Below, piece by piece: positions 1 through 8,338 of a stretch of DNA of 8,338 nucleotides (position 1 is its first letter; each line of letters begins with the position of its first letter). A program made the position numbers and the translations under genes. The notes below the pieces were generated by a model. The model did not search any database. It was given only the letters and a program-made list of their open reading frames with translations, and was not told the DNA's origin. This DNA is from a virus. Its lineage: Duplodnaviria > Heunggongvirae > Uroviricota > Caudoviricetes. The stretch covers positions 1-8,338 of the IMG/VR virus record IMGVR_UViG_2654587792_000032. The stretch is one strand, 5' to 3'.

Positions 1-486
1 CACCTTTAGCCAATGCTCAATGCGTCTTTCACAGGTTCTTAAACTCCATTCCGGATGTGCATCATTCAGCAGTTCAGCCATTTTGCGCTTAGTCATCCCC
101 CGCCCCACATAACGCTGACTCAGAACATTGAGCAGCCCGGGATAACCTGCCAGTACTTCACCAATAACCCTGTCGATTATTAACGCCTCTGAATCGGTAC
201 AATGTGCCAGCCAGCTTTTTTGATTGCCGTTGATCATATCCCGCAAAAAAGCCTCAAGTTCAGGTTTGTCCAGACCCGCTTTTTTCATCCTCCGGAGCGC
301 CTCGTTAATTGCCGTTTTTGTCAGCTTTTTAGAGGTCAGTAATTGGTTGAACATATTTCCCGTCTTACCGTCGCCAATATACGACCAACGCCCCCACATA
401 CGCAGTTTCCCCTGGATCCAGACACTTTCCAGCGTTTTCAGGCGTAAATGCTCACCGCTTTTGCCTGTAATTTCCGGGTATATCAT
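1..486 (-). CDS. Phage late-gene antitermination protein Q family; C-terminal end runs off the window (at least 162 codons present)
   Basis: ATG at 486 (rc of cat 484-486). The frame stays open to position 1 (checked by hand for the last 40 codons: ...SQRYVGRGMTKRKMAELLNDAHPEWSLRTCERRIEHWLKV). The N-terminal LRMWGRWSY and C-terminal RYVGRGMTKRKMAELL segments resemble Q antiterminators of the DLP12/82 type as I recall them. It lies 8 nt downstream of rusA, the canonical nin-region order. Not in the ORF track because it is open-ended; the + strand ORF 224-568 is its shadow. Confidence 0.7.
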   Translation of the reverse strand, partial: MIYPEITGKSGEHLRLKTLESVWIQGKLRMWGRWSYIGDGKTGNMFNQLLTSKKLTKTAINEALRRMKKAGLDKPELEAFLRDMINGNQKSWLAHCTDSEALIIDRVIGEVLAGYPGLLNVLSQRYVGRGMTKRKMAELLNDAHPEWSLRTCERRIEHWLKV

Positions 487-494
487 ATTTATGC

Positions 495-860
495 TCACTC
501 ACTTTCAATTTTGTAAATCTTCACGCCCAGCCGCCCACCAGAAACGAGCTGACCGCGCACAATATTGATTTCATCAAACTGCTCGTCGTCTATAAGTAGT
601 CCGGCATGCGTAAGCGCATCCAGTGGTGCCTTCAGGATATTGTCCAGGTCGCGGCGGCGCTTATCCGGTGGCTCTGCAATAATCTTTATCGCCAGCCTTC
701 CGGACAGGTTTAATTTCAGCCACTGCTGGCGAACAATAAGTGCCACATCCCGGCGATAACGCTCACCGGCTTTTGACACAAAATATGTGCTGCCACGACG
801 TCGCCAGTAGGTGTTCACCGTCGGCGGGTAAGGCAAAACAAATTCTATGCGTTCAGTCAT
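495..860 (-). CDS. rusA: Crossover junction endodeoxyribonuclease RusA (Holliday junction resolvase)
   Basis: 121 aa. The PYPPTVNTYWRRRG segment, the DKRRRDLDNILKAPLDALTHAGLLIDDEQ block and the GGRL motif match the RusA family (catalytic Asp cluster). Stop TGA at 495-497. Confidence 0.9.
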   Translation of the reverse strand: MTERIEFVLPYPPTVNTYWRRRGSTYFVSKAGERYRRDVALIVRQQWLKLNLSGRLAIKIIAEPPDKRRRDLDNILKAPLDALTHAGLLIDDEQFDEINIVRGQLVSGGRLGVKIYKIESE

Positions 861-1916
861 TCATGCTTTCCACTTCAGGACACCCGAATTTCTCGCGTGC
901 ATTAAAAAACGAATCAGCAACAACAGCTGGCTGCCGTGTTTTTCTTCAAAATCTTTTACCCCGGCGTGCAGTTCGTTATGACATTTACGGCACAGCGGAA
1001 TAACAAACAAATCATCAGCCTTTGTTCCCATACCTCCCAGGCCATGACCAATGATGTGATGCGGATCATCTGCCTGATTACCGCACGTCATGCATTTCTG
1101 CGTTTTTACCCAGCGCGTGTATACAGGCATCTCTTCCCGTTGTGGTTTCTGGCGCTGGAGATACTGAGCCGGTGACTCCGGATCAACGGCAATGCTGACC
1201 ACCGTCTTTTCCTGTGGCGGGTTTTGCTGGTGGGCGTGAGGCAGCAGCGCAAGATTTTTTGTGCGCTGCTTCAGTATGCTGGTGGCGGTCTGCTCTCCCG
1301 GTACGATGTCGCTTTCGCGGTACACCGAGCGGATTTTTTCCGCACGCAATCCCAGAGAACGACGTAATACTGCCTCCGGCAATACGTCCGCTACCTGATT
1401 GCAGACCGCCCACCAGGATAATTCAGCCAGCGATAACTCCCGCTCCTGTGTACCGTTTATTGCGTGGCGGATGACGTCAATCATCCAGGATGTCAGGTTT
1501 TGTTGAGCAAGTTGCCCGAGTGATTCTGAAGTCTGGTCGCGTAACTGATTATCACAGTGCCAGCACAATACCATTGCGCCGGTACCGTAACGATGTATGA
1601 CGGTTTCACTGTGGTGGTAGTCACCATGAGGCCACTGGCAGGATTTAACATGGCGTAACAGCCAGTCAGACAATGCGCCAGCGCCGCCAGCAGCACGAAT
1701 CACCCGCTCATCGCTGAAAAATGGCAGTAATGATTTATCTTCCGCGAGCGGCTGGCGCACGGCAGGAACAGTTCCTGACGGCAGACCGCGCATGCTTTTC
1801 GGTTCCGGCTCCACCAGCACCCGGGGATTATGAAATACCTGCATGGATTCACGGCCCGGCTTAAGGACCACCAGCCCGAGTTCCGGTACCAGAACAGGTC
1901 GAAGTAATACCCGCAC
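861..1916 (-). CDS. ydfU: DUF968 (YdfU-family) lambdoid prophage protein with C-terminal Cys/His HNH-like motif
   Basis: 351 aa with GTG start at 1916. An SD-like GGAGG (rc of 1921-1925) sits inside the 3' end of the upstream ORF. The C-terminus CMTCGNQADDPHHIIGHGLGG...CRKCHNELH is a zinc-finger/HNH-like signature typical of DUF968 proteins. Its stop TGA (861-863) abuts the rusA ATG (858-860), implying translational coupling. Confidence 0.8.
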   Translation of the reverse strand: MRVLLRPVLVPELGLVVLKPGRESMQVFHNPRVLVEPEPKSMRGLPSGTVPAVRQPLAEDKSLLPFFSDERVIRAAGGAGALSDWLLRHVKSCQWPHGDYHHSETVIHRYGTGAMVLCWHCDNQLRDQTSESLGQLAQQNLTSWMIDVIRHAINGTQERELSLAELSWWAVCNQVADVLPEAVLRRSLGLRAEKIRSVYRESDIVPGEQTATSILKQRTKNLALLPHAHQQNPPQEKTVVSIAVDPESPAQYLQRQKPQREEMPVYTRWVKTQKCMTCGNQADDPHHIIGHGLGGMGTKADDLFVIPLCRKCHNELHAGVKDFEEKHGSQLLLLIRFLMHARNSGVLKWKA

Positions 1917-1917
1917 G

Positions 1918-2196
1918 TTACCTCCAGATACGCTGCTGGAATGTGCGGGACGGACGCGGTGGGCGTTCAGAGTAAGGCAGTCTGACTGAGATTATCCAGT
2001 GTCGGAAGTCGAAGCTGAGGTCTTTCTGAAACTCGTAACCACGTCTGCGGTAGTTCTGAATTAGCCACTCTGCCTGCTCTTCAGTACATGGATCATGCTG
2101 GAACCAGTCAGATTTGAATGCATGAGAACGCCGCCCGTGCCTGCTGGCAAAGACGGCTGAATTATCAGAATTGTGTTGTCTGGAATTTTGCGCCAT
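1918..2196 (-). CDS. Hypothetical small phage protein (92 aa), nin-region position
   Basis: ATG at 2196 preceded by GGAGA with 6-nt spacing. Stop TAA at 1918-1920 lies 1 nt from the GTG of the DUF968 gene. No family recognised from the sequence; it may correspond to the small ORF found next to ydfU in Qin-like prophages. Confidence 0.5.
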   Translation of the reverse strand: MAQNSRQHNSDNSAVFASRHGRRSHAFKSDWFQHDPCTEEQAEWLIQNYRRRGYEFQKDLSFDFRHWIISVRLPYSERPPRPSRTFQQRIWR

Positions 2197-2262
2197 CGGC
2201 TTTCTCCGGTGGCACAGTGTTACTCAACAGGGGTTCAGCCCTGCGCTGAATTGTAGATGAAT

Positions 2263-2571
2263 TCACTCATCTTCAAAAGCAGAAAAACCAGCCTTAATCC
2301 CAGCTTCTTTCAGAGACGGCAACGATGTGACAAATTCATTTGCACGCAAAATAAAACCATCCGTCACAAGCCCATCCACCAAATGAATTAACGCAGCTCC
2401 ACTCTTCCTTTGTTGAGACTGTAAACATTTAATACGGCAGTGGCTGACAATAGCGCCATTCTCAACGCGCACAGTATAGAGGCCATCCTCACTAAAAATT
2501 TCACGTAATTCTTCGATTTTCATCAACAGAATCCTTCCAGATAAATAGCACTCCCCCTGTTCGGGGTCCAT
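2263..2571 (-). CDS. Hypothetical small protein (102 aa from ATG 2571; 86 aa if the internal ATG at 2523 is used)
   Basis: Open frame with two candidate starts: ATG 2571 (purine-rich AGGGAGAAGAGGG upstream) or ATG 2523 (GGAAGGA about 8 nt upstream). No recognisable domain. It lies between the cassette terminator and the backbone ORFs. Confidence 0.45.
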   Translation of the reverse strand: MDPEQGECYLSGRILLMKIEELREIFSEDGLYTVRVENGAIVSHCRIKCLQSQQRKSGAALIHLVDGLVTDGFILRANEFVTSLPSLKEAGIKAGFSAFEDE

Positions 2572-2606
2572 CCCTCTTCTCCCTGCGCGCTACTTAAGTA
2601 TTTTTG

Positions 2607-2636
2607 ATTCTATTCTGGCACCGTCCAAAACTTCAA
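2607..2636 (-). promoter_or_regulatory. Candidate sigma70 promoter for the 2263-2571 ORF
   Basis: On the minus strand: TTGAAG (rc of 2631-2636), an 18-nt spacer, then TAGAAT (rc of 2607-2612). It sits immediately downstream of the 2645-2676 terminator. Sequence match only. Confidence 0.3.
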
Positions 2637-2644
2637 ACACGTTG

Positions 2645-2676
2645 AAAATAAAAACAAAAAACCCGCCGAAGCGGGT
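2645..2676 (-). terminator. Rho-independent terminator ending the 216-aa/368-aa operon
   Basis: Minus-strand RNA reads ACCCGC-UUCG-GCGGGU (perfect 6-bp GC-rich stem with a UUCG tetraloop) followed by UUUUUUGUUUUUAUUUU. It starts 5 nt after the stop of the 2681-3787 CDS. Confidence 0.8.
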
Positions 2677-2680
2677 ATAC

Positions 2681-3787
2681 TCAAACAATCTGGAAAATAT
2701 TTCTTGGATTTGTAATAGGTCTGTTGATGGAGAACAACTCACGAATTAAATCTTGGCTCAAGCCAGTTTTCATAAGAATTCTTAGCCAGGTTGCATCATC
2801 CAGCATTTCAATCGCCTCGGCCAGCATACCGGGTTCTTCAGGGCGCAAAAGTTCATCACCAGGTTCAACTCTCGTATACCCTCTGGAATTAAGATGCATA
2901 TAGCCAGTTCTTGCCTGTTCCTGGGTCAATAAGCCTAATGCGCTGGCTCGATAAATACACATTTTAAGGCTGATTTTCCATCTAAGTTTAAATTCAACCA
3001 GAGCATTCCAGTCGAATTGCTTACCTCGTATTCGTGGAAATTCTTTAATGAAAGATAACCTGGGAACTAATAAGGCGCTCGAAAAGTGATCGGCTTGTGA
3101 TTCCGTAAGTTTATCACCTGTCGTTATGCCCTCATGCATTACTAAATGCCCTAATTCATGACCTAAATCAGAGCGAAATCTACATATGCTTTTTTTAACA
3201 TTGTTCCTGATGATAACAGGCCTGTTATTGTGAACAGTAAAAGCATCAACACGATCATCGACTCCCGTAACATGCGCAACGATTACCCCTAAACTCTCCG
3301 CCAATTTAACCATTGATGATATAGGGCCAAGACCTAAATTCCAGGCACGGCGACAATCTTCTGCCACTCGCTCAATATCATTCGGAGTAAGTAATTCAGC
3401 CCCTGGGTGCTCCGGTATGTTAACGTCAGGAAATTCGATTTCACCTTCAACAGCAGAAATTATAATATTAAGAATCTCAGCCCTGGCCAATACACTATTA
3501 GTCAGCGTTTGAGTCCTGGACTTCTTACTCCGAAAATGGCAGACATCACTTTCCAGAGCGTATTTTCGTTCAGTAAAAAGAAAACTGGACTTAATCATAA
3601 GCGCTGAAGATATTAACTCAAGACATTGCTCCGATGGCCTGCACCCCTTCTCCAGTTTGCTAACGAATTGCTTTGTCTTGCCAATTTTTTCGGCTAACTC
3701 TTCACAAGAAAGCCCAACAGCCATTCTCGCTAGTTTGAGCTTATCACCCCGATACTCAGTGAAGTTATTCACCTGATGTTCCATCAC
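2681..3787 (-). CDS. XRE-family HTH DNA-binding domain fused to an ImmA/IrrE-type (M78, COG2856-like) zinc metallopeptidase domain
   Basis: 368 aa. The N-terminal KLKLARMAVGLSCEELAEKIGKTKQFVSKLEKG is a typical HTH_3/XRE helix-turn-helix. The HEXXH zinc motif HELGH falls at residues 210-214 (nt 3146-3160, verified by reverse-complement), followed by ESQADHF as a plausible third-ligand region. The start is GTG 3787 or ATG 3784. It overlaps the upstream 216-aa gene by about 20 nt. Confidence 0.85.
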   Translation of the reverse strand: MMEHQVNNFTEYRGDKLKLARMAVGLSCEELAEKIGKTKQFVSKLEKGCRPSEQCLELISSALMIKSSFLFTERKYALESDVCHFRSKKSRTQTLTNSVLARAEILNIIISAVEGEIEFPDVNIPEHPGAELLTPNDIERVAEDCRRAWNLGLGPISSMVKLAESLGVIVAHVTGVDDRVDAFTVHNNRPVIIRNNVKKSICRFRSDLGHELGHLVMHEGITTGDKLTESQADHFSSALLVPRLSFIKEFPRIRGKQFDWNALVEFKLRWKISLKMCIYRASALGLLTQEQARTGYMHLNSRGYTRVEPGDELLRPEEPGMLAEAIEMLDDATWLRILMKTGLSQDLIRELFSINRPITNPRNIFQIV

Positions 3788-4415
3788 TGCTCACATCCAA
3801 ATCTTTATCCTTCGTACGCCGACGAAGAGGCACCTTATTAATCTCCGCTTCGTCAGGGAGTGTGTTATAATCAAGAGGCATAAGCGGCATCGATGCTGTA
3901 GATTGATGAGAAACTATACTAATCTGAGCACCATAAGTATTAAATCCAACAAGAGCCACCTCCCAACGAGGCAGTGTGGACTCTAATTCACCATCGCCCT
4001 CTTCGGATAAAAAAGGCTCAGCTATGACTCGCCATGTAATATCTTGCTCAGCCTCAACATCACCAAACAATGAGAGTTGCTCATACTCTACTTTATTTCG
4101 ACGCAGACGATGTTTCTTTTTGGGGTTATTAATGCAATCTTTGGTAAATTGTAGCGGAACTTTATTTAAAGCAACTACATAGTCCAACCCCTTGGAAATC
4201 ATCTCAAGGCCAGGAATTGCATCTTCATTTTGAATAAGATGATTTCTGACCCAATCATAAGCCCTTACACCTTCAGACCAGTTGCTGTCTAATGCGTGCT
4301 TATGATAGTACAGCTGCTCAAGTACGTTAGCGATCTCCGCCAACAAGTGGCGAACATAGTTTTCAGCAAGATAAGGTTGAAATTCCCAACAAGGAGCTAA
4401 CTGATTTTCATTCAT
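3765..4415 (-). CDS. Hypothetical protein (216 aa), first gene of a two-gene operon with the HTH-peptidase
   Basis: A single upstream ATG at 4415. The long open frame has an acidic C-terminal tail (EEGDGELE...DEAEI...DKDLDVSSDGTSGE) and a basic patch KKKHRLRRNK. No family recognised. Stop TAA at 3765-3767 lies inside the start region of the downstream gene. Confidence 0.6.
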   Translation of the reverse strand: MNENQLAPCWEFQPYLAENYVRHLLAEIANVLEQLYYHKHALDSNWSEGVRAYDWVRNHLIQNEDAIPGLEMISKGLDYVVALNKVPLQFTKDCINNPKKKHRLRRNKVEYEQLSLFGDVEAEQDITWRVIAEPFLSEEGDGELESTLPRWEVALVGFNTYGAQISIVSHQSTASMPLMPLDYNTLPDEAEINKVPLRRRTKDKDLDVSSDGTSGE

Positions 4416-4450
4416 TTCAAGTTTCGCTTTTTTTAGAATTCGTAAACCAC

Positions 4451-4479
4451 ATATTTTCGCATTTTTCTATTTTTGTCAA
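4451..4479 (-). promoter_or_regulatory. Candidate sigma70 promoter for the 216-aa/HTH-peptidase operon
   Basis: On the minus strand: perfect -35 TTGACA (rc of 4474-4479), a 17-nt spacer, then an A/T-rich -10 AAATAT (rc of 4451-4456). It sits about 35 nt upstream of ATG 4415 and directly downstream of the hok terminator. No strong SD before the ATG. Confidence 0.35.
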
Positions 4480-4487
4480 CCAGACTA

Positions 4488-4512
4488 ATGCAAAAACCCG
4501 CCGAAGCGGGTT
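4488..4512 (-). terminator. Rho-independent terminator at the 3' end of the hok mRNA
   Basis: Minus-strand RNA reads AACCCGC-UUCG-GCGGGUU followed by UUUUUG. The 20-nt core AAAAACCCGCCGAAGCGGGT is identical to the terminator at 2656-2676. Confidence 0.7.
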
Positions 4513-4580
4513 AAGTGCGGGTGCGTTGAGGATGCCTGGCACATCAGAGGTGGCGGGAGATTACTCCCCCGCCGGGTCTC

Positions 4581-4736
4581 TTACTCCTCAGGTTCGTAAG
4601 CTGTGAAGACAGCGACCTCCGTCTGGCCGGTTCGGATTCGTACCTCGCAGAGGTCTTTCCTCGTTACCAGTGCCGTCACTATGACGGTTAAACAGATGAC
4701 GATCAGGGCGATTAACATCGCCTTTTGCTGCTTCAT
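4581..4736 (-). CDS. hokD: Hok/Gef-family type I toxin (51 aa small membrane toxin)
   Basis: Translation MKQQKAMLIALIVICLTVIVTALVTRKDLCEVRIRTGQTEVAVFTAYEPEE shows the hallmark Hok hydrophobic helix and the conserved C-E-V/L and Y-E motifs. As far as I recall it matches HokD/RelF of the Qin prophage. The in-frame upstream extension (ORF track 4581-4793, starting MLYTRR...) marks a mok-like upstream reading frame. Confidence 0.85.
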   Translation of the reverse strand: MKQQKAMLIALIVICLTVIVTALVTRKDLCEVRIRTGQTEVAVFTAYEPEE

Positions 4737-4905
4737 AGCCTGCTTCTCCTTGCCTTTCGGCACGTAAGAGGCTAACCTACGTGTGTAGAGCATAGATATG
4801 GCCTCAGATTAATGTTAAGCGTCTTGCCGGACGCGTAATGTTAACTGGGGCTTTTCTCTATCTGCCTTTGGTGTTGATGCCCGAGGCAGATAGCCTCAAG
4901 CACCC
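4737..4905 (-). promoter_or_regulatory. hok mRNA 5' leader with mok-like start region and fold-back (tac/ucb-type) elements
   Basis: The minus-strand leader GCUUGAGGCUAUCUGCCUC...GGCAGAUAG contains a 9-bp inverted repeat (plus 4858-4866 pairing with 4885-4893). The segment UAGCCUCUUACGUGCCGAAAGGCAAGGAGAAGCAGGCUAUG parallels the plasmid R1 hok leader as I recall it. Confidence 0.5.
4786..4866 (+). ncRNA. sok: Sok-like antisense RNA (approximate ends)
   Basis: On the plus strand, opposite the hok leader: candidate promoter -35 TTGCCT (4750-4755), a 17-nt spacer, then -10 TAACCT (4773-4778). This mirrors the R1 sok promoter arrangement from memory. The transcript would be complementary to the mok start region and extend into the 4858-4893 inverted repeat. 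Ends are inferred, not observed. Confidence 0.4.
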
Positions 4906-4911
4906 GCAGCA

Positions 4912-4940
4912 ATTCTACTTAACTACCGTTACCTCGCCAA
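4912..4940 (-). promoter_or_regulatory. Candidate sigma70 promoter of the hok mRNA
   Basis: On the minus strand: -35 TTGGCG (rc of 4935-4940), a 17-nt spacer, then -10 TAGAAT (rc of 4912-4917). The predicted start falls near GGGTGCTTGAGG, consistent with the 5' end of hok-family mRNAs. Confidence 0.5.
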
Positions 4941-5411
4941 TATGAAATCAATCAGAAAGGTGATCCATAAGAACAACAGCAAGACAATAAATTGCCATTA
5001 CAGCAGCAATAGCCAGCGCACATTTGAGAACCAGCACCACAACCTCCTGTATTGGACGTACACCAGTCCTGATAAATATGAGGCTGTCTCGTCAGTGATT
5101 CAATACAACTACTGGGTATAGTTTCTATGATTTTGTTCTGTGGAAATGGAAAACAGCAACCAGTCACCACCAGCACTTCTTTAAACATGCCAAGTCACAC
5201 GCAAGCCAACATTATAGTTCCCTTTGAGCGAGCAGATGAAGCTAGCAAAAATATTGATCACTTAGGATGCATTACTAACGTTGCTATGTGTTAACGAACA
5301 GGGAGTGGGTCATCAGCATAAATATTTATGCAGTAGGTTTCTTTTAGGACTAGATTAATCAAAAACATTTAGATAAAATTATAAAATCAAGAAATTGGTG
5401 GCAATTAATCT

Positions 5412-5441
5412 TTAATTGTGCCAGCTGAATTTCGTTATTAT
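5412..5441 (+). promoter_or_regulatory. Candidate promoter for the membrane-protein/methyltransferase operon
   Basis: -10 TATTAT (5436-5441) lies about 37 nt upstream of ATG 5479. The -35 is weak (TTAATT at 5412-5417, 18-nt spacer). AT-rich context makes this call weak. Confidence 0.25.
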
Positions 5442-5478
5442 AGAAGATTAGCTTTTTTTTGAGTGTTTGGAGAGTAAA

Positions 5479-6174
5479 ATGTTAGAACCACCAAAGAGTT
5501 ATAATGAAATGTTGCCTATGCTCCATAAGGCGACTTTTATTACTACATTTATATTTTACCTATCATTAGTCATTTATGGCTACATGCCATTGGTTGGCAT
5601 TAATGCCAAGTATATCCCCCCCGTTAAAGACTACGAGGAATTTATTAAATGGATATTAACCTTTGGCATACTACCAATTGCATCTTCAGTTTTTTGGTCA
5701 GTAATTAGTGGAGCTTTAGATCTACATAATAATGTAGCAAAAATTATTGGAATAAGGAAGATGTGGGATAGTCATTTAATTATTAAACCATTAGCAAAAA
5801 TTGCAGGCGTTACGAGAAAATTAACTACTGATGAATCTCACAAGGTAATGAGTAAACTGTATTACCCAGAAGTTAAAGAGTTAAAAGACAAACATTACGT
5901 TGAACTTTTCTGGAACAAAGTTTATTACTTTTGGGTTTTCTTTGAACATACAGTAATCGCATTTGTTACTATTTTAATAATAAGTATCGCCAAATTAACA
6001 AATATATTCTCTGTTACTGGCTCTTTAATTAATCTTTGGTTGTGGATTATTTCTCTTGTCGCATTTGACTTCCTTATTTTCATAGCATCAGTTAAACCAA
6101 GAACAGAAAGCCAAGTAAGACAAATACCTGATAGCAAAATAAAAGAATTCTTTAACAATAACAATATTTTTTAA
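5479..6174 (+). CDS. Predicted integral membrane protein with four hydrophobic helices (about 232 aa), uncharacterised
   Basis: ATG 5479 follows an SD-like TGGAGA (5468-5473); the ORF track starts at an upstream in-frame TTG at 5467. Hydrophobic helices lie roughly at residues 21-40, 57-81, 151-175 and 183-205, with a charged loop in between. Sequence is strongly AT-rich with A/T-ending codons. Stop TAA at 6172-6174. Confidence 0.65.
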   Translation: MLEPPKSYNEMLPMLHKATFITTFIFYLSLVIYGYMPLVGINAKYIPPVKDYEEFIKWILTFGILPIASSVFWSVISGALDLHNNVAKIIGIRKMWDSHLIIKPLAKIAGVTRKLTTDESHKVMSKLYYPEVKELKDKHYVELFWNKVYYFWVFFEHTVIAFVTILIISIAKLTNIFSVTGSLINLWLWIISLVAFDFLIFIASVKPRTESQVRQIPDSKIKEFFNNNNIF

Positions 6175-6186
6175 ACGAGGTTGATT

Positions 6187-6840
6187 TTGAATTACAAAAT
6201 AAATGGAATAAACATACGTTCAGAAAATGCAGCGAAACCGCACACTATGCCATCTAACTATCTCTGTAAACAGATTGAAAGCACTAATAAAAATGGCAAT
6301 GCCCTTGATTTTGGATGTGGAAAACTTAGATATTCAGAACAATTAGCAAATAAATTTGAAACTGTGACATTTTTAGATTCCAGAAGACAACTAGAAAGAG
6401 TGCAAATTATCAGAGGTGTACAAACTACGATTCCAGATTACGTGATAAATAACTATAAGAATGCTAATATTGTTTCTTATGAAAATATAGATAAAATAAC
6501 AAATCATTATGATTTCATACTTTGCGCAAACGTGCTTTCCGCAATTCCATGTGAATCCACAATTCACAAAGTCCTCAGTGCGATTAGAGAATTATTAAAG
6601 AGTGATGGTGAAGCACTGATTGTCAATCAATACAAAAGTTCTTATTTCAAGAGGTACGAGAGCGGTATTAAACATTTGCATGGGTATATATACCAAAACT
6701 CTCGCAATGCTTTCTACTATGGTTTATTAGATGTGGATACTGTAAGTAAAATATGCTCAGATAATAATTTAGAAATAATAAAATCATGGAGCAAAGCAGG
6801 TAGTTCATATGTGGTTGTTGGTAAACATATACATATTTAG
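6187..6840 (+). CDS. Small class-I SAM-dependent methyltransferase-like protein (about 217 aa)
   Basis: Rossmann-fold methyltransferase motifs are present: LDFGCGK (motif I, glycine-rich SAM loop), TFLDS (acidic residue at the end of beta-2), YDFILCANVLSAIP (motif II) and LLKSDGEALIV (motif III). The start is probably TTG 6187 (GAGG at 6177-6180, 6-nt spacing) or TTG 6181. It begins 7-13 nt after the stop of the membrane-protein gene. Confidence 0.6.
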   Translation: MNYKINGINIRSENAAKPHTMPSNYLCKQIESTNKNGNALDFGCGKLRYSEQLANKFETVTFLDSRRQLERVQIIRGVQTTIPDYVINNYKNANIVSYENIDKITNHYDFILCANVLSAIPCESTIHKVLSAIRELLKSDGEALIVNQYKSSYFKRYESGIKHLHGYIYQNSRNAFYYGLLDVDTVSKICSDNNLEIIKSWSKAGSSYVVVGKHIHI

Positions 6841-7154
6841 TTTATTTCAACAAATTATTAGAAAGAGTGATTTGCTTGTTAATTATTAGCTCGGCAGTGC
6901 CGGATCAACATGACCCTGCCACTTAGGCCATTGCCGGTTTACCTACTTTTGTAAGGTTCAGCATGAAGTTTTTATATACTCTTCCTAATATCAATAGTGA
7001 TGCTCGCTTATGTTAGCTGCTTCTTGTACATAGTAGCCTTCTCCGACAGTACTGCAATGAGCGGAGAGTAAAAGTCGATAAACAATAAGGAGGTTCACAA
7101 TAAATATTTCTCGGTGAAACTTTCAAAGCATTCTCTGTTTTGCTAAATCGACAA

Positions 7155-8054
7155 TTATAAATCAACAACATTTAGTGTTATATCAATATTATTTAGCCTT
7201 GCAATCTCTGATGAATCACTTGCTATTTTAGCTTTTAATTTATCAATATTAATCATATCTTCATGGCTTATATAAACCATATCACCTTGGTTAACTTTAG
7301 ATTTGTTCACTATGGCTTGAATAACAGACAAATCATCCATTACACCTCTCATAAATTTCACCATGCTTTGATCTTTGAAGTCAGATATCGATTTTGAACG
7401 TTGCTTACGTTGAATTGTTCCTTTTGTAATTACTTCATTAATTTCTTTTAAACCAGTGAGCATATCAGACAGACTGCCTTCGCAACTCATCCGATGTTTT
7501 ATTGCATTGCGATTAATAATATTGAGTATAATTTCGAGTGAATCTTTATCACTCCATGGATGTAATGATGTATAATCATGATGGCGTCGAATGGCGTCAA
7601 TCATATCCTGGACCATATCTTCATCTGCTTTATCGCAAAGTTCATTCACGAAATAGCTGGGGTCGATTATTTTACAATAACTTGGAGTTAGGTATCTTGA
7701 GGCTTTACAAAAAACAAAAATATATAAAGTAGAGTATTTATCTTTCAGACTCTCTCCTATTTCATTTATTTTCTCAAAAGATTCGATAGTTTTTTTAATT
7801 TTTGCTGGACTTGCATTCGTAGTAACTTGAACTGCTATCATGTTTTTATTATCAGCTAAATCAATGGCGGGAAAATTAACTTTAATCTGATTCATGTTTA
7901 CCAGTTCACCCATTTTCAGCGCGCGAAACATAAAGATGGTCAATGACTCAATTATTCTTTCCATGTCATGAAAGCCTGCCTGTTTGCGTTGCGCGATATA
8001 AAGCTGGAGTAGTGCAATATCACTCTGTAAGTTTCTAATAAGTGGATCAATCAT
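7155..8054 (-). CDS. Hypothetical protein (299 aa), AT-rich orphan, convergent to the methyltransferase operon
   Basis: ATG 8054 is preceded by AAGGA with 9-nt spacing. A continuous 900-nt open frame in AT-rich DNA, with a Lys/Asp/Ile/Asn-rich composition. No family confidently recognised. Confidence 0.6.
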   Translation of the reverse strand: MIDPLIRNLQSDIALLQLYIAQRKQAGFHDMERIIESLTIFMFRALKMGELVNMNQIKVNFPAIDLADNKNMIAVQVTTNASPAKIKKTIESFEKINEIGESLKDKYSTLYIFVFCKASRYLTPSYCKIIDPSYFVNELCDKADEDMVQDMIDAIRRHHDYTSLHPWSDKDSLEIILNIINRNAIKHRMSCEGSLSDMLTGLKEINEVITKGTIQRKQRSKSISDFKDQSMVKFMRGVMDDLSVIQAIVNKSKVNQGDMVYISHEDMINIDKLKAKIASDSSEIARLNNIDITLNVVDL

Positions 8055-8338
8055 AGCTAATAATCCTTTTCAATGAAGCTGGAGGTGTGTTTAACTATTA
8101 GTTAAATTTCTATTTTTATAGAAACAAGCTTTACAACTTCATCAAAGTTTCTCAAATCCTAATCCACTTTGCAAATCCACTAACCATGCTGAATGCTTTC
8201 TGTTGTTAAACATATCCGCTGCTGGCACCAAGCAGACAAACACACTAAGGAAGGTGCGAATAAGCGGGGAAATACTTCTCGGCTGACTCAGTCATTTCAT
8301 TTCTTCATGTTTGAGCCGATTTTTTCTCCCGTAAATGC

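Follow-up and report, generated by a model that had tools for sequence, protein, structure and literature searches.

A probable RosmerTA-type cassette at the hokD terminator of a Qin-like prophage of Escherichia coli, with a candidate clamp-binding motif in its predicted toxin

A small two-gene cassette in a prophage of Escherichia coli raises the question of what is done by a 216-amino-acid protein whose gene overlaps that of a second protein, in which a helix-turn-helix (HTH) domain is fused to a zinc-peptidase domain, and by which mechanism the pair could act. The DNA analysed was IMGVR_UViG_2654587792_000032, positions 1-8,338 (hereafter the window, 8,338 nucleotides), with the cassette genes on the minus strand. 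A first-pass annotation had proposed a toxin-antitoxin-like (TA-like) or defence module, the 216-amino-acid protein being the effector and the HTH-M78 fusion the regulator or antitoxin. In our reading, to which we assign a rough probability of 0.7, the locus is a moron of a Qin-like lambdoid prophage of E. coli, namely a RosmerTA-type cassette with TA and anti-phage functions, and its toxin would poison the beta sliding clamp, DnaN.

RosmerTA consists of an upstream toxin, RmrT, and an antitoxin with HTH and zinc-peptidase domains, RmrA; the system protects against phage, and a deletion of rmrA was unobtainable in the verified system (Millman et al. 2022 preprint). About 58% of the pairs of this kind start with the toxin gene (Ernits et al. 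2023, PMC10440598). The corresponding genes and domains in the window were as follows.

4415..3765, minus strand: rmrT, 216 amino acids from an ATG start, predicted toxin (PADLOC PDLC03929, phrog_5786)
3784..2681, minus strand: rmrA, 367 amino acids from ATG, HTH plus M78 zinc-peptidase, putative antitoxin and repressor
3765..3784, minus strand: overlap of the rmrT stop and the rmrA start, 20 nt (23 nt with the GTG start at 3787)
3599..3739, minus strand: XRE-type HTH of RmrA (Pfam HTH_3, residues 17-63, 5e-07)
2942..3259, minus strand: Peptidase_M78 (ImmA/IrrE) domain of RmrA (Pfam, residues 177-282, 6e-11)
3160..3146, minus strand: HELGH of RmrA, with H209, E210 and H213 in the ATG numbering
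3103..3101, minus strand: E228 of RmrA, candidate third zinc ligand by alignment with verified RmrA

Both open reading frames (ORFs) were found at the coordinates claimed by the first-pass annotation. Starting rmrA at the GTG at 3787 would give 368 residues (3787..2681), and in this numbering the HELGH residues are H210, E211 and H214, as that annotation had listed them. RefSeq uses the ATG form, with the 20-nt overlap, for the E. coli pair WP_001004956.1 (hypothetical protein) and WP_000401168.1 (helix-turn-helix / ImmA-IrrE metallo-endopeptidase). The length of the overlap was identical in every related locus with RmrT of at least 63% identity. Sequence matches of the RmrA HTH in the PDB were SinR, 434 repressor and CapH. 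H209, E210, H213 and E228 were invariant when RmrA was aligned with verified RmrA and diverged relatives; at the sequence level, the HEXXH and downstream Glu of the zinc site, which had been named earlier as a point to check, are therefore conserved.

RmrT matched its PADLOC profile with an E value of 4.6e-25, residues 7-209 of the protein aligning with positions 5-195 of the 198 in the profile; it had no Pfam or NCBIfam match. RmrA matched 14 PADLOC RmrA profiles (best 6e-105) and, in PHROGs, phrog_2439; the function of phrog_5786, which contains RmrT, is unassigned there. RmrA also matched the NCBIfam spr1629 family repressor/antitoxin (1.5e-45), of which it is not an equivalog because its 156 bits are below the family cut-off of 335. 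Sequences of the verified RmrT and RmrA of E. coli OLC-716 were taken from the supplement of Millman 2022 (Table S2), and BLASTP aligned the two RmrA proteins with 29% identity over 301 amino acids (E 2e-35). A co-oriented adjacent pair, a zinc-peptidase antitoxin homologous to verified RmrA, an intact HEXXH and a catalogued RmrT profile were all present, and the sequence thus makes it very likely that the two overlapping genes are a member of RosmerTA. This label is already assignable by standard defence-finder tools, and the system type itself is known.

The 216-amino-acid protein had been described as an unrecognised partner, which it is not, since it is catalogued as RmrT; nor did it turn out to be a structural or housekeeping phage protein. 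The verified OLC-716 RmrT matches another PADLOC profile, PDLC03935. By sequence, the window RmrT belongs to a toxin class that is catalogued but different from the verified class; Rosmer toxins are diverse, so toxin homology is not strictly defining. Of the earlier proposal, the architecture of an upstream RmrT followed by an HTH and zinc-peptidase RmrA held, both proteins having PADLOC profiles, and the toxicity and defence parts have been established for other Rosmer toxin classes only. By analogy to those classes, the cassette probably behaves as a TA system, and we lean towards an anti-phage role.

The position of the cassette in the prophage was defined as follows. A perfect 20-nt direct repeat, AAAAACCCGCCGAAGCGGGT, occurs at 2657-2676 and 4492-4511 and brackets an insert of 1,815 bp. 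The repeat is the terminator hairpin of hokD, one copy lying upstream and one downstream of the cassette. In Qin of E. coli K-12 the site is empty, and the hairpin occurs once (K-12 locus L002, 4030-4050). Window positions 1169-2676 aligned with K-12 ydfU-rem and 4491-4750 with hokD, and the two alignments overlap in K-12 on one 21-nt stretch, which is the hokD terminator hairpin. As read from these alignments, a segment of 1.8 kb, the cassette, has inserted into a Qin-like prophage exactly where the hokD terminator lies. The insert contains only the two genes, and its GC content is 41-45%, versus 48-57% in the backbone to its left. The regulatory elements around the two genes were as follows.

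4416..4481, minus strand: promoter and leader of the cassette, conserved in 10 diverged loci, promoter function predicted
4492..4512, minus strand: upstream hokD intrinsic terminator hairpin (4512..4495 in the terminator scan; also found by repeat search and RNA fold)
2651..2676, minus strand: downstream intrinsic terminator, an ACCCGC-UUCG-GCGGGU hairpin (6-bp GC stem) then a U run, 2676..2661 (terminator scan and RNA fold)

The upstream hairpin is identical to the downstream one, and the cassette is therefore transcriptionally insulated at both ends. The downstream element, a GC hairpin and U run right after rmrA, is the strong terminator that had been noticed in the first pass. A perfect TTGACA is located at 4479..4474 (minus strand). 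It was invariant, and the leader of about 70 nt was kept, in 10 loci with RmrT proteins 50-94% identical; the leader was more conserved than the coding sequence. Conservation across such diverged loci is not explained by chance. A GCGAAA direct repeat, with copies 33 nt apart at 4460..4455 and 4427..4422, overlaps both the -10 and the translation start regions, and this conserved repeat is a candidate operator for the RmrA HTH. No obvious Shine-Dalgarno sequence was seen before the start of rmrT.

At least 80% of the cassette was present in 237 of the 5,426 complete E. coli genomes (about 4%), and copies were also found on two E. coli plasmids. In IMG/VR and GTDB, the rmrA gene lay directly downstream in all of the 54 loci with RmrT at 50-100% identity. 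A search based on RmrA (35-74% identity) gave 27 loci with an upstream ORF, and 25 of these carried a partner of the same RmrT family (hidden Markov model E values from 1e-28 to 1e-65). Co-occurrence of the pair outside this locus, another check proposed with the first-pass annotation, was thus seen from both sides. RmrT was always the more diverged partner, the identities of RmrT and RmrA being 94 vs 97.5%, 85 vs 92%, 63 vs 73%, and 50 vs 63%. All copies of the cassette with at least 94% identity were between hokD and rem/ydfU/rusA. Copies with 87% identity or less were in unrelated contexts and usually started just after some other terminator hairpin, yet TTGACA, leader, pair and overlap were kept. 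Because they stay together across contexts, the pair, promoter and leader behave as one selected unit. Three distant members of the RmrT family had no relatives in IMG/VR.

Two individual copies are described here. In one locus (L026, 4632-5700; IMG/VR UViG 2740892442_000002), a frameshift removes approximately the last 22 residues of RmrA and rmrT is intact; either the C-terminal tail of RmrA is dispensable or the frameshift is a sequencing error. In E. coli FORC 064 (L001, 8161-11309), the cassette adjoins the type III effector genes nleB2, nleC (partial), nleH (frameshifted) and nleF, and the Qin-like prophages around this copy form a tandem pair that has been rearranged.

An exhaustive profile search showed that RmrT represents a family of proteins of about 200 amino acids, with 69 representatives at E<1e-3. 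RmrT is acidic and, by sequence, soluble, and no hydrophobic segment was seen. The AlphaFold2 (AF2) model had a predicted local distance difference test (pLDDT) score of 62, which rose to 83 after a 50-sequence alignment was used, and consisted of two long helices, three strands, a loop of approximately 35 residues and three more strands. No convincing structural neighbour of the model was found, and comparison of the family profile with the PDB gave no relative (best E 0.06). The loop between strands 3 and 4 is basic and then acidic, NPKKKHRLRRNKVEYEQLSLFGDVEAEQD, and contains the peptide VEYEQLSLFGDVE with the following candidate motif.

4065..4079, minus strand: codons of QLSLF, RmrT residues 113-117, an exact match to the beta-clamp-binding consensus QL(S/D)LF; binding predicted

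Acidic flanks are typical of motifs with this consensus, and the canonical motif was defined as Q-aliphatic-x-[L/M]-[F/L], or the same with one extra residue before the last (review PMC11139829). Residues 96-123 of RmrT, which include the motif, had pLDDT <50 in the model built from the shallow alignment. The canonical motif was present in 42 of 71 full-length RmrT relatives, always at the homologous position, and occurred anywhere in only 5.7% of shuffled sequences. Since relatedness inflates this raw count, representatives from clustering at 50% identity were counted, and 27 of 56 carried the motif. Position 3 varied freely (S, T, D, E, N, K, A, G and P), and five- and six-residue forms alternated among the relatives (QLSLF, QLPLF, QMGLF, QLSLPL and QLSLDF). 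Such variation fits known clamp-binding motifs and would not be expected of a buried helix. The verified OLC-716 RmrT family has, at one position, QLKLDL (residues 143-148 in OLC-716) or, in Vibrionaceae, NLDLF; 26 of its 39 members carried the canonical motif, vs 10.7% of shuffles.

RmrA homologues of approximately 35% identity were also seen at two loci, L133 and L134 (1873-2517), paired with a 214-amino-acid upstream protein. This partner matched neither the window nor the verified RmrT family and represents another toxin class. It has no canonical clamp motif; the motif is therefore not universal among partners of RmrA-like proteins.

Published work on related systems bears on what the motif could do. 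Spr1630/Spr1629 (RipAB) of Streptococcus pneumoniae has been assigned to the Rosmer family (PLoS Genet 2025, PMC12795458). RipA binds DnaN, and its toxicity is suppressed by substitutions in the hydrophobic pocket of the clamp; its neutralisation by an HTH-ImmA-like antitoxin depends on ClpX, and the essentiality of clpX in S. pneumoniae is caused by RipA (PMC12795458). The word 'motif' and the phrase 'clamp-binding' are both absent from the main text of that paper, and no description of the clamp-motif lead for the window RmrT class was found in the literature searched. Among Pectobacteriaceae, rmrA was essential in three, and clpX was essential only in strains carrying Rosmer (PMC13566846). 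In E. coli E101, clpP is essential owing to a prophage TA pair of the same kind, in which the toxin is upstream of the antidote (Rousset et al. 2020 preprint).

Based on the motif and on the analogy with RipA, targeting of the clamp through QLSLF by the window RmrT class is regarded as a serious possibility, although short of probable. We also suggest, tentatively, that Rosmer toxins unrelated in sequence repeatedly use binding to the clamp pocket as their mode of action, namely the window class, the OLC-716 class with QLKLDL or NLDLF, and RipA, the toxin being removed jointly by the HTH-peptidase and ClpXP. The proposed course of events would be as follows. The HTH of RmrA would repress the cassette promoter, possibly at the GCGAAA repeat, and RmrA together with host ClpX/ClpP would act on the RmrT protein to hold it inactive. 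This control would break down upon phage infection, protease overload or loss of ClpXP capacity, and RmrT would accumulate. It would then dock by QLSLF into the hydrophobic pocket of DnaN and displace polymerases, so that replication of host and phage DNA would stop, resulting in growth arrest or abortive infection.

Several observations weigh against this interpretation. About 40% of RmrT relatives lack the canonical motif, and in distant ones no more than x-x-[LM]-F, with acidic surroundings, is left. Residues 108-115 were helical in the deeper model, with pLDDT of about 70-86; the first half of the motif is thus in a short helix, and the conserved Leu and Phe could be structural and not used for docking. 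Window RmrT gave nothing by BLASTP with verified OLC-716 RmrT, and hhalign of the two family profiles gave a probability of 1.6%; toxicity, neutralisation and phage protection are accordingly extrapolated to the window class from Rosmer systems with sequence-unrelated toxins. At least one Rosmer toxin, that of Gordonia phage Kita, acts on the membrane and not on the clamp (PMC10440598). Among 50,697 deposited phage genomes, the only megablast match of the cassette was the 65-nt region of the hok terminator, and tblastn with RmrT found nothing; a role for the phage itself is therefore not documented. As for the cassette's own promoter-like site, which the first-pass annotation had claimed, TTGACA is perfect and conserved, but the -10 candidates (4458..4451) are weak, AAATAT matching at 3/6 with 17-nt spacing and TGcGAAAAT at 4/6 with 15-nt spacing. 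Because of the weak -10, a consensus promoter scan called none at the cassette.

Other genes of the window that bear on the setting of the cassette were as follows.

4581-4905, minus strand: hok/sok type I TA locus, with Hok of 51 amino acids (Pfam HOK_GEF) and sok RNA (Rfam RF01794, 114 bits at 4731-4905)
861-1916, minus strand: YdfU-like DUF968/HNHc protein, backbone gene downstream of the cassette
495-860, minus strand: RusA, backbone gene downstream of the cassette
7155-8054, minus strand: SMEK_N-domain protein (PADLOC Aga_REase-PNTD1-PNTD2, 2e-21)

The hok/sok locus is complete and lies immediately upstream of the cassette, so that two TA systems are adjacent. With the YdfU-like protein and RusA as neighbours, the cassette maps upstream of the Q antiterminator, within the late-regulatory (nin-like) region of a lambdoid prophage; it is far from the dicA/dicC immunity region. 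The GC content at 5201-8054 is only 31-34%. A plus-strand pair in this part encodes a 235-amino-acid membrane-like protein with no family match and a class I S-adenosylmethionine methyltransferase (weak PADLOC mad2 match, 1.5e-5). The SMEK_N protein and this pair are possible further defence morons.

Four other explanations of the cassette were considered. It could serve a cryptic prophage simply for addiction or stabilisation, or as a stress switch, with no role in defence, and persist since its loss kills the cell. The overlap, the autoregulation-like leader and a toxin evolving faster than the antitoxin are classic TA features, the neighbouring hok/sok is another addiction locus, RipAB is linked to competence and not to defence, and the anti-phage role of the window toxin class rests on analogy with other classes. 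We nevertheless regard it as unlikely that addiction is all there is, since verified Rosmer systems protect against phage and the cassette is in a moron-rich, low-GC stretch with defence-like genes (the SMEK protein and the methyltransferase pair); moreover, addiction and defence are not mutually exclusive. Quite unlikely is a nuclease: RmrT would be a divergent member of the restriction-endonuclease-like PD-(D/E)xK fold, perhaps tethered to DNA via the clamp motif, and would kill by cutting DNA, but in the 50-sequence alignment the columns of strands 2 and 3 (L-x-F-V-F-x-I and V-P-x-R-F) have no conserved acidic residue or Lys.

The polarity could also be reversed, with the HTH-peptidase toxic and the upstream 216-amino-acid protein its antidote, as in PD-lambda-2, where the Xre-peptidase is toxic by itself and the upstream gene relieves this toxicity (Vassallo 2022). 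This is very unlikely for the present insert, which has two genes and not three, the first of them without similarity to HigB; no PD-Lambda-2 profile was among the PADLOC matches of either protein, whereas 14 RmrA profiles match RmrA, and in Rosmer systems it is the peptidase gene that is undeletable or essential. Finally, RmrA has the same two domains as ImmR/ImmA and CapH/CapP and also matched PADLOC capP (1.6e-14) and capH (1.5e-4), and it might be a switch of this kind for neighbouring prophage or defence genes, the 216-amino-acid protein being co-regulated cargo or an accessory. Such a role has hardly any likelihood: the cassette is bracketed by terminators, its neighbours are unchanged in K-12 Qin that is without it, it moves among unrelated contexts with only its partner gene, and the dicA/dicC region is distant.

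A RosmerTA cassette with a clamp-poisoning toxin, if correct, would have several implications. Poisoning of the clamp together with removal of the toxin by ClpXP would explain why clpX or clpP is essential in Rosmer carriers, and the clamp-like motif would tie the targeting of DnaN by RipA to this essentiality in carriers of three bacterial groups. Rosmer would gain a concrete mechanism of abortive infection, the shutdown of replication that depends on the host clamp. RosmerTA is widespread and its toxins are mostly uncharacterised; the motif narrows the question of how the toxin acts to a few point-mutant and binding experiments. Natural protein inhibitors of the clamp pocket would be of practical interest because this pocket is an antibiotic target. 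The hokD terminator site, occupied here and empty in K-12, is a clean example of a defence moron entering a prophage.

The cassette was compared with the systems that it resembles. Like the window cassette, RosmerTA of OLC-716 has two co-oriented genes with the toxin first and an RmrA with HTH and zinc-peptidase domains (370 vs 367 amino acids), an identical HELGH and a downstream Glu, and both toxins are soluble, of about 220-240 amino acids, with a clamp-motif-like element in mid-protein (QLKLDL vs QLSLF). The toxins are unrelated in sequence and match different PADLOC profiles (PDLC03935 vs PDLC03929). RipAB is likewise of the Rosmer family, with an XRE plus ImmA-like antitoxin, and the mechanism of RipA is the one proposed for window RmrT; it differs in having been studied for competence induction and not for phage defence. 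The pair E101_02645/E101_02644, which makes clpP essential in E. coli E101, is also prophage-borne, with a domain-less toxin upstream of the antidote, and is cited by Millman et al. as a zinc-peptidase-antitoxin configuration. Its accessions, WP_001179380 and WP_000481765, differ from those of the window pair (WP_001004956 and WP_000401168), and its T46S suppressor fits an OLC-716-type toxin and not window RmrT, because OLC-716 has T46 and the window protein W46.

E. coli carrying the Rosmer system of phage Kita is protected from some phages (Ernits et al. 2023, PMC10440598). This system resembles the window cassette in having an ImmA-type RmrA and a toxin without recognisable domains, and it is phage-encoded. 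The Kita toxin, whose C-terminus is membrane-localised, depolarises the membrane, unlike the acidic, soluble window RmrT. PD-lambda-2 comprises three genes, for HigB-like, Xre-peptidase and P4-antitoxin-like proteins (Vassallo 2022). Assignment of the cassette to this system was rejected on the basis of the gene number, the lack of a HigB-like gene and the lack of a profile match.

ImmR/ImmA of ICEBs1, DdrO/IrrE of Deinococcus and CapH/CapP of CBASS likewise use an XRE HTH and an M78/COG2856 peptidase as a signal-responsive switch. In these systems the two domains reside in different proteins, the repressor is a substrate of the peptidase, and a neighbouring operon is controlled; in the window they are fused, and the upstream toxin gene is the only cargo. 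Assignment to these systems was also rejected, given the fusion, an upstream gene without HTH and the terminators bounding the cassette. SocAB of Caulobacter crescentus, a type VI TA system, has a toxin that blocks replication at the beta-clamp pocket and is controlled through ClpXP, the toxin being the reason why the protease is essential. SocA differs from the HTH-peptidase RmrA in being a small protease adaptor; the logic of clamp and ClpXP proposed for the window cassette is thus like that of SocAB by analogy only.

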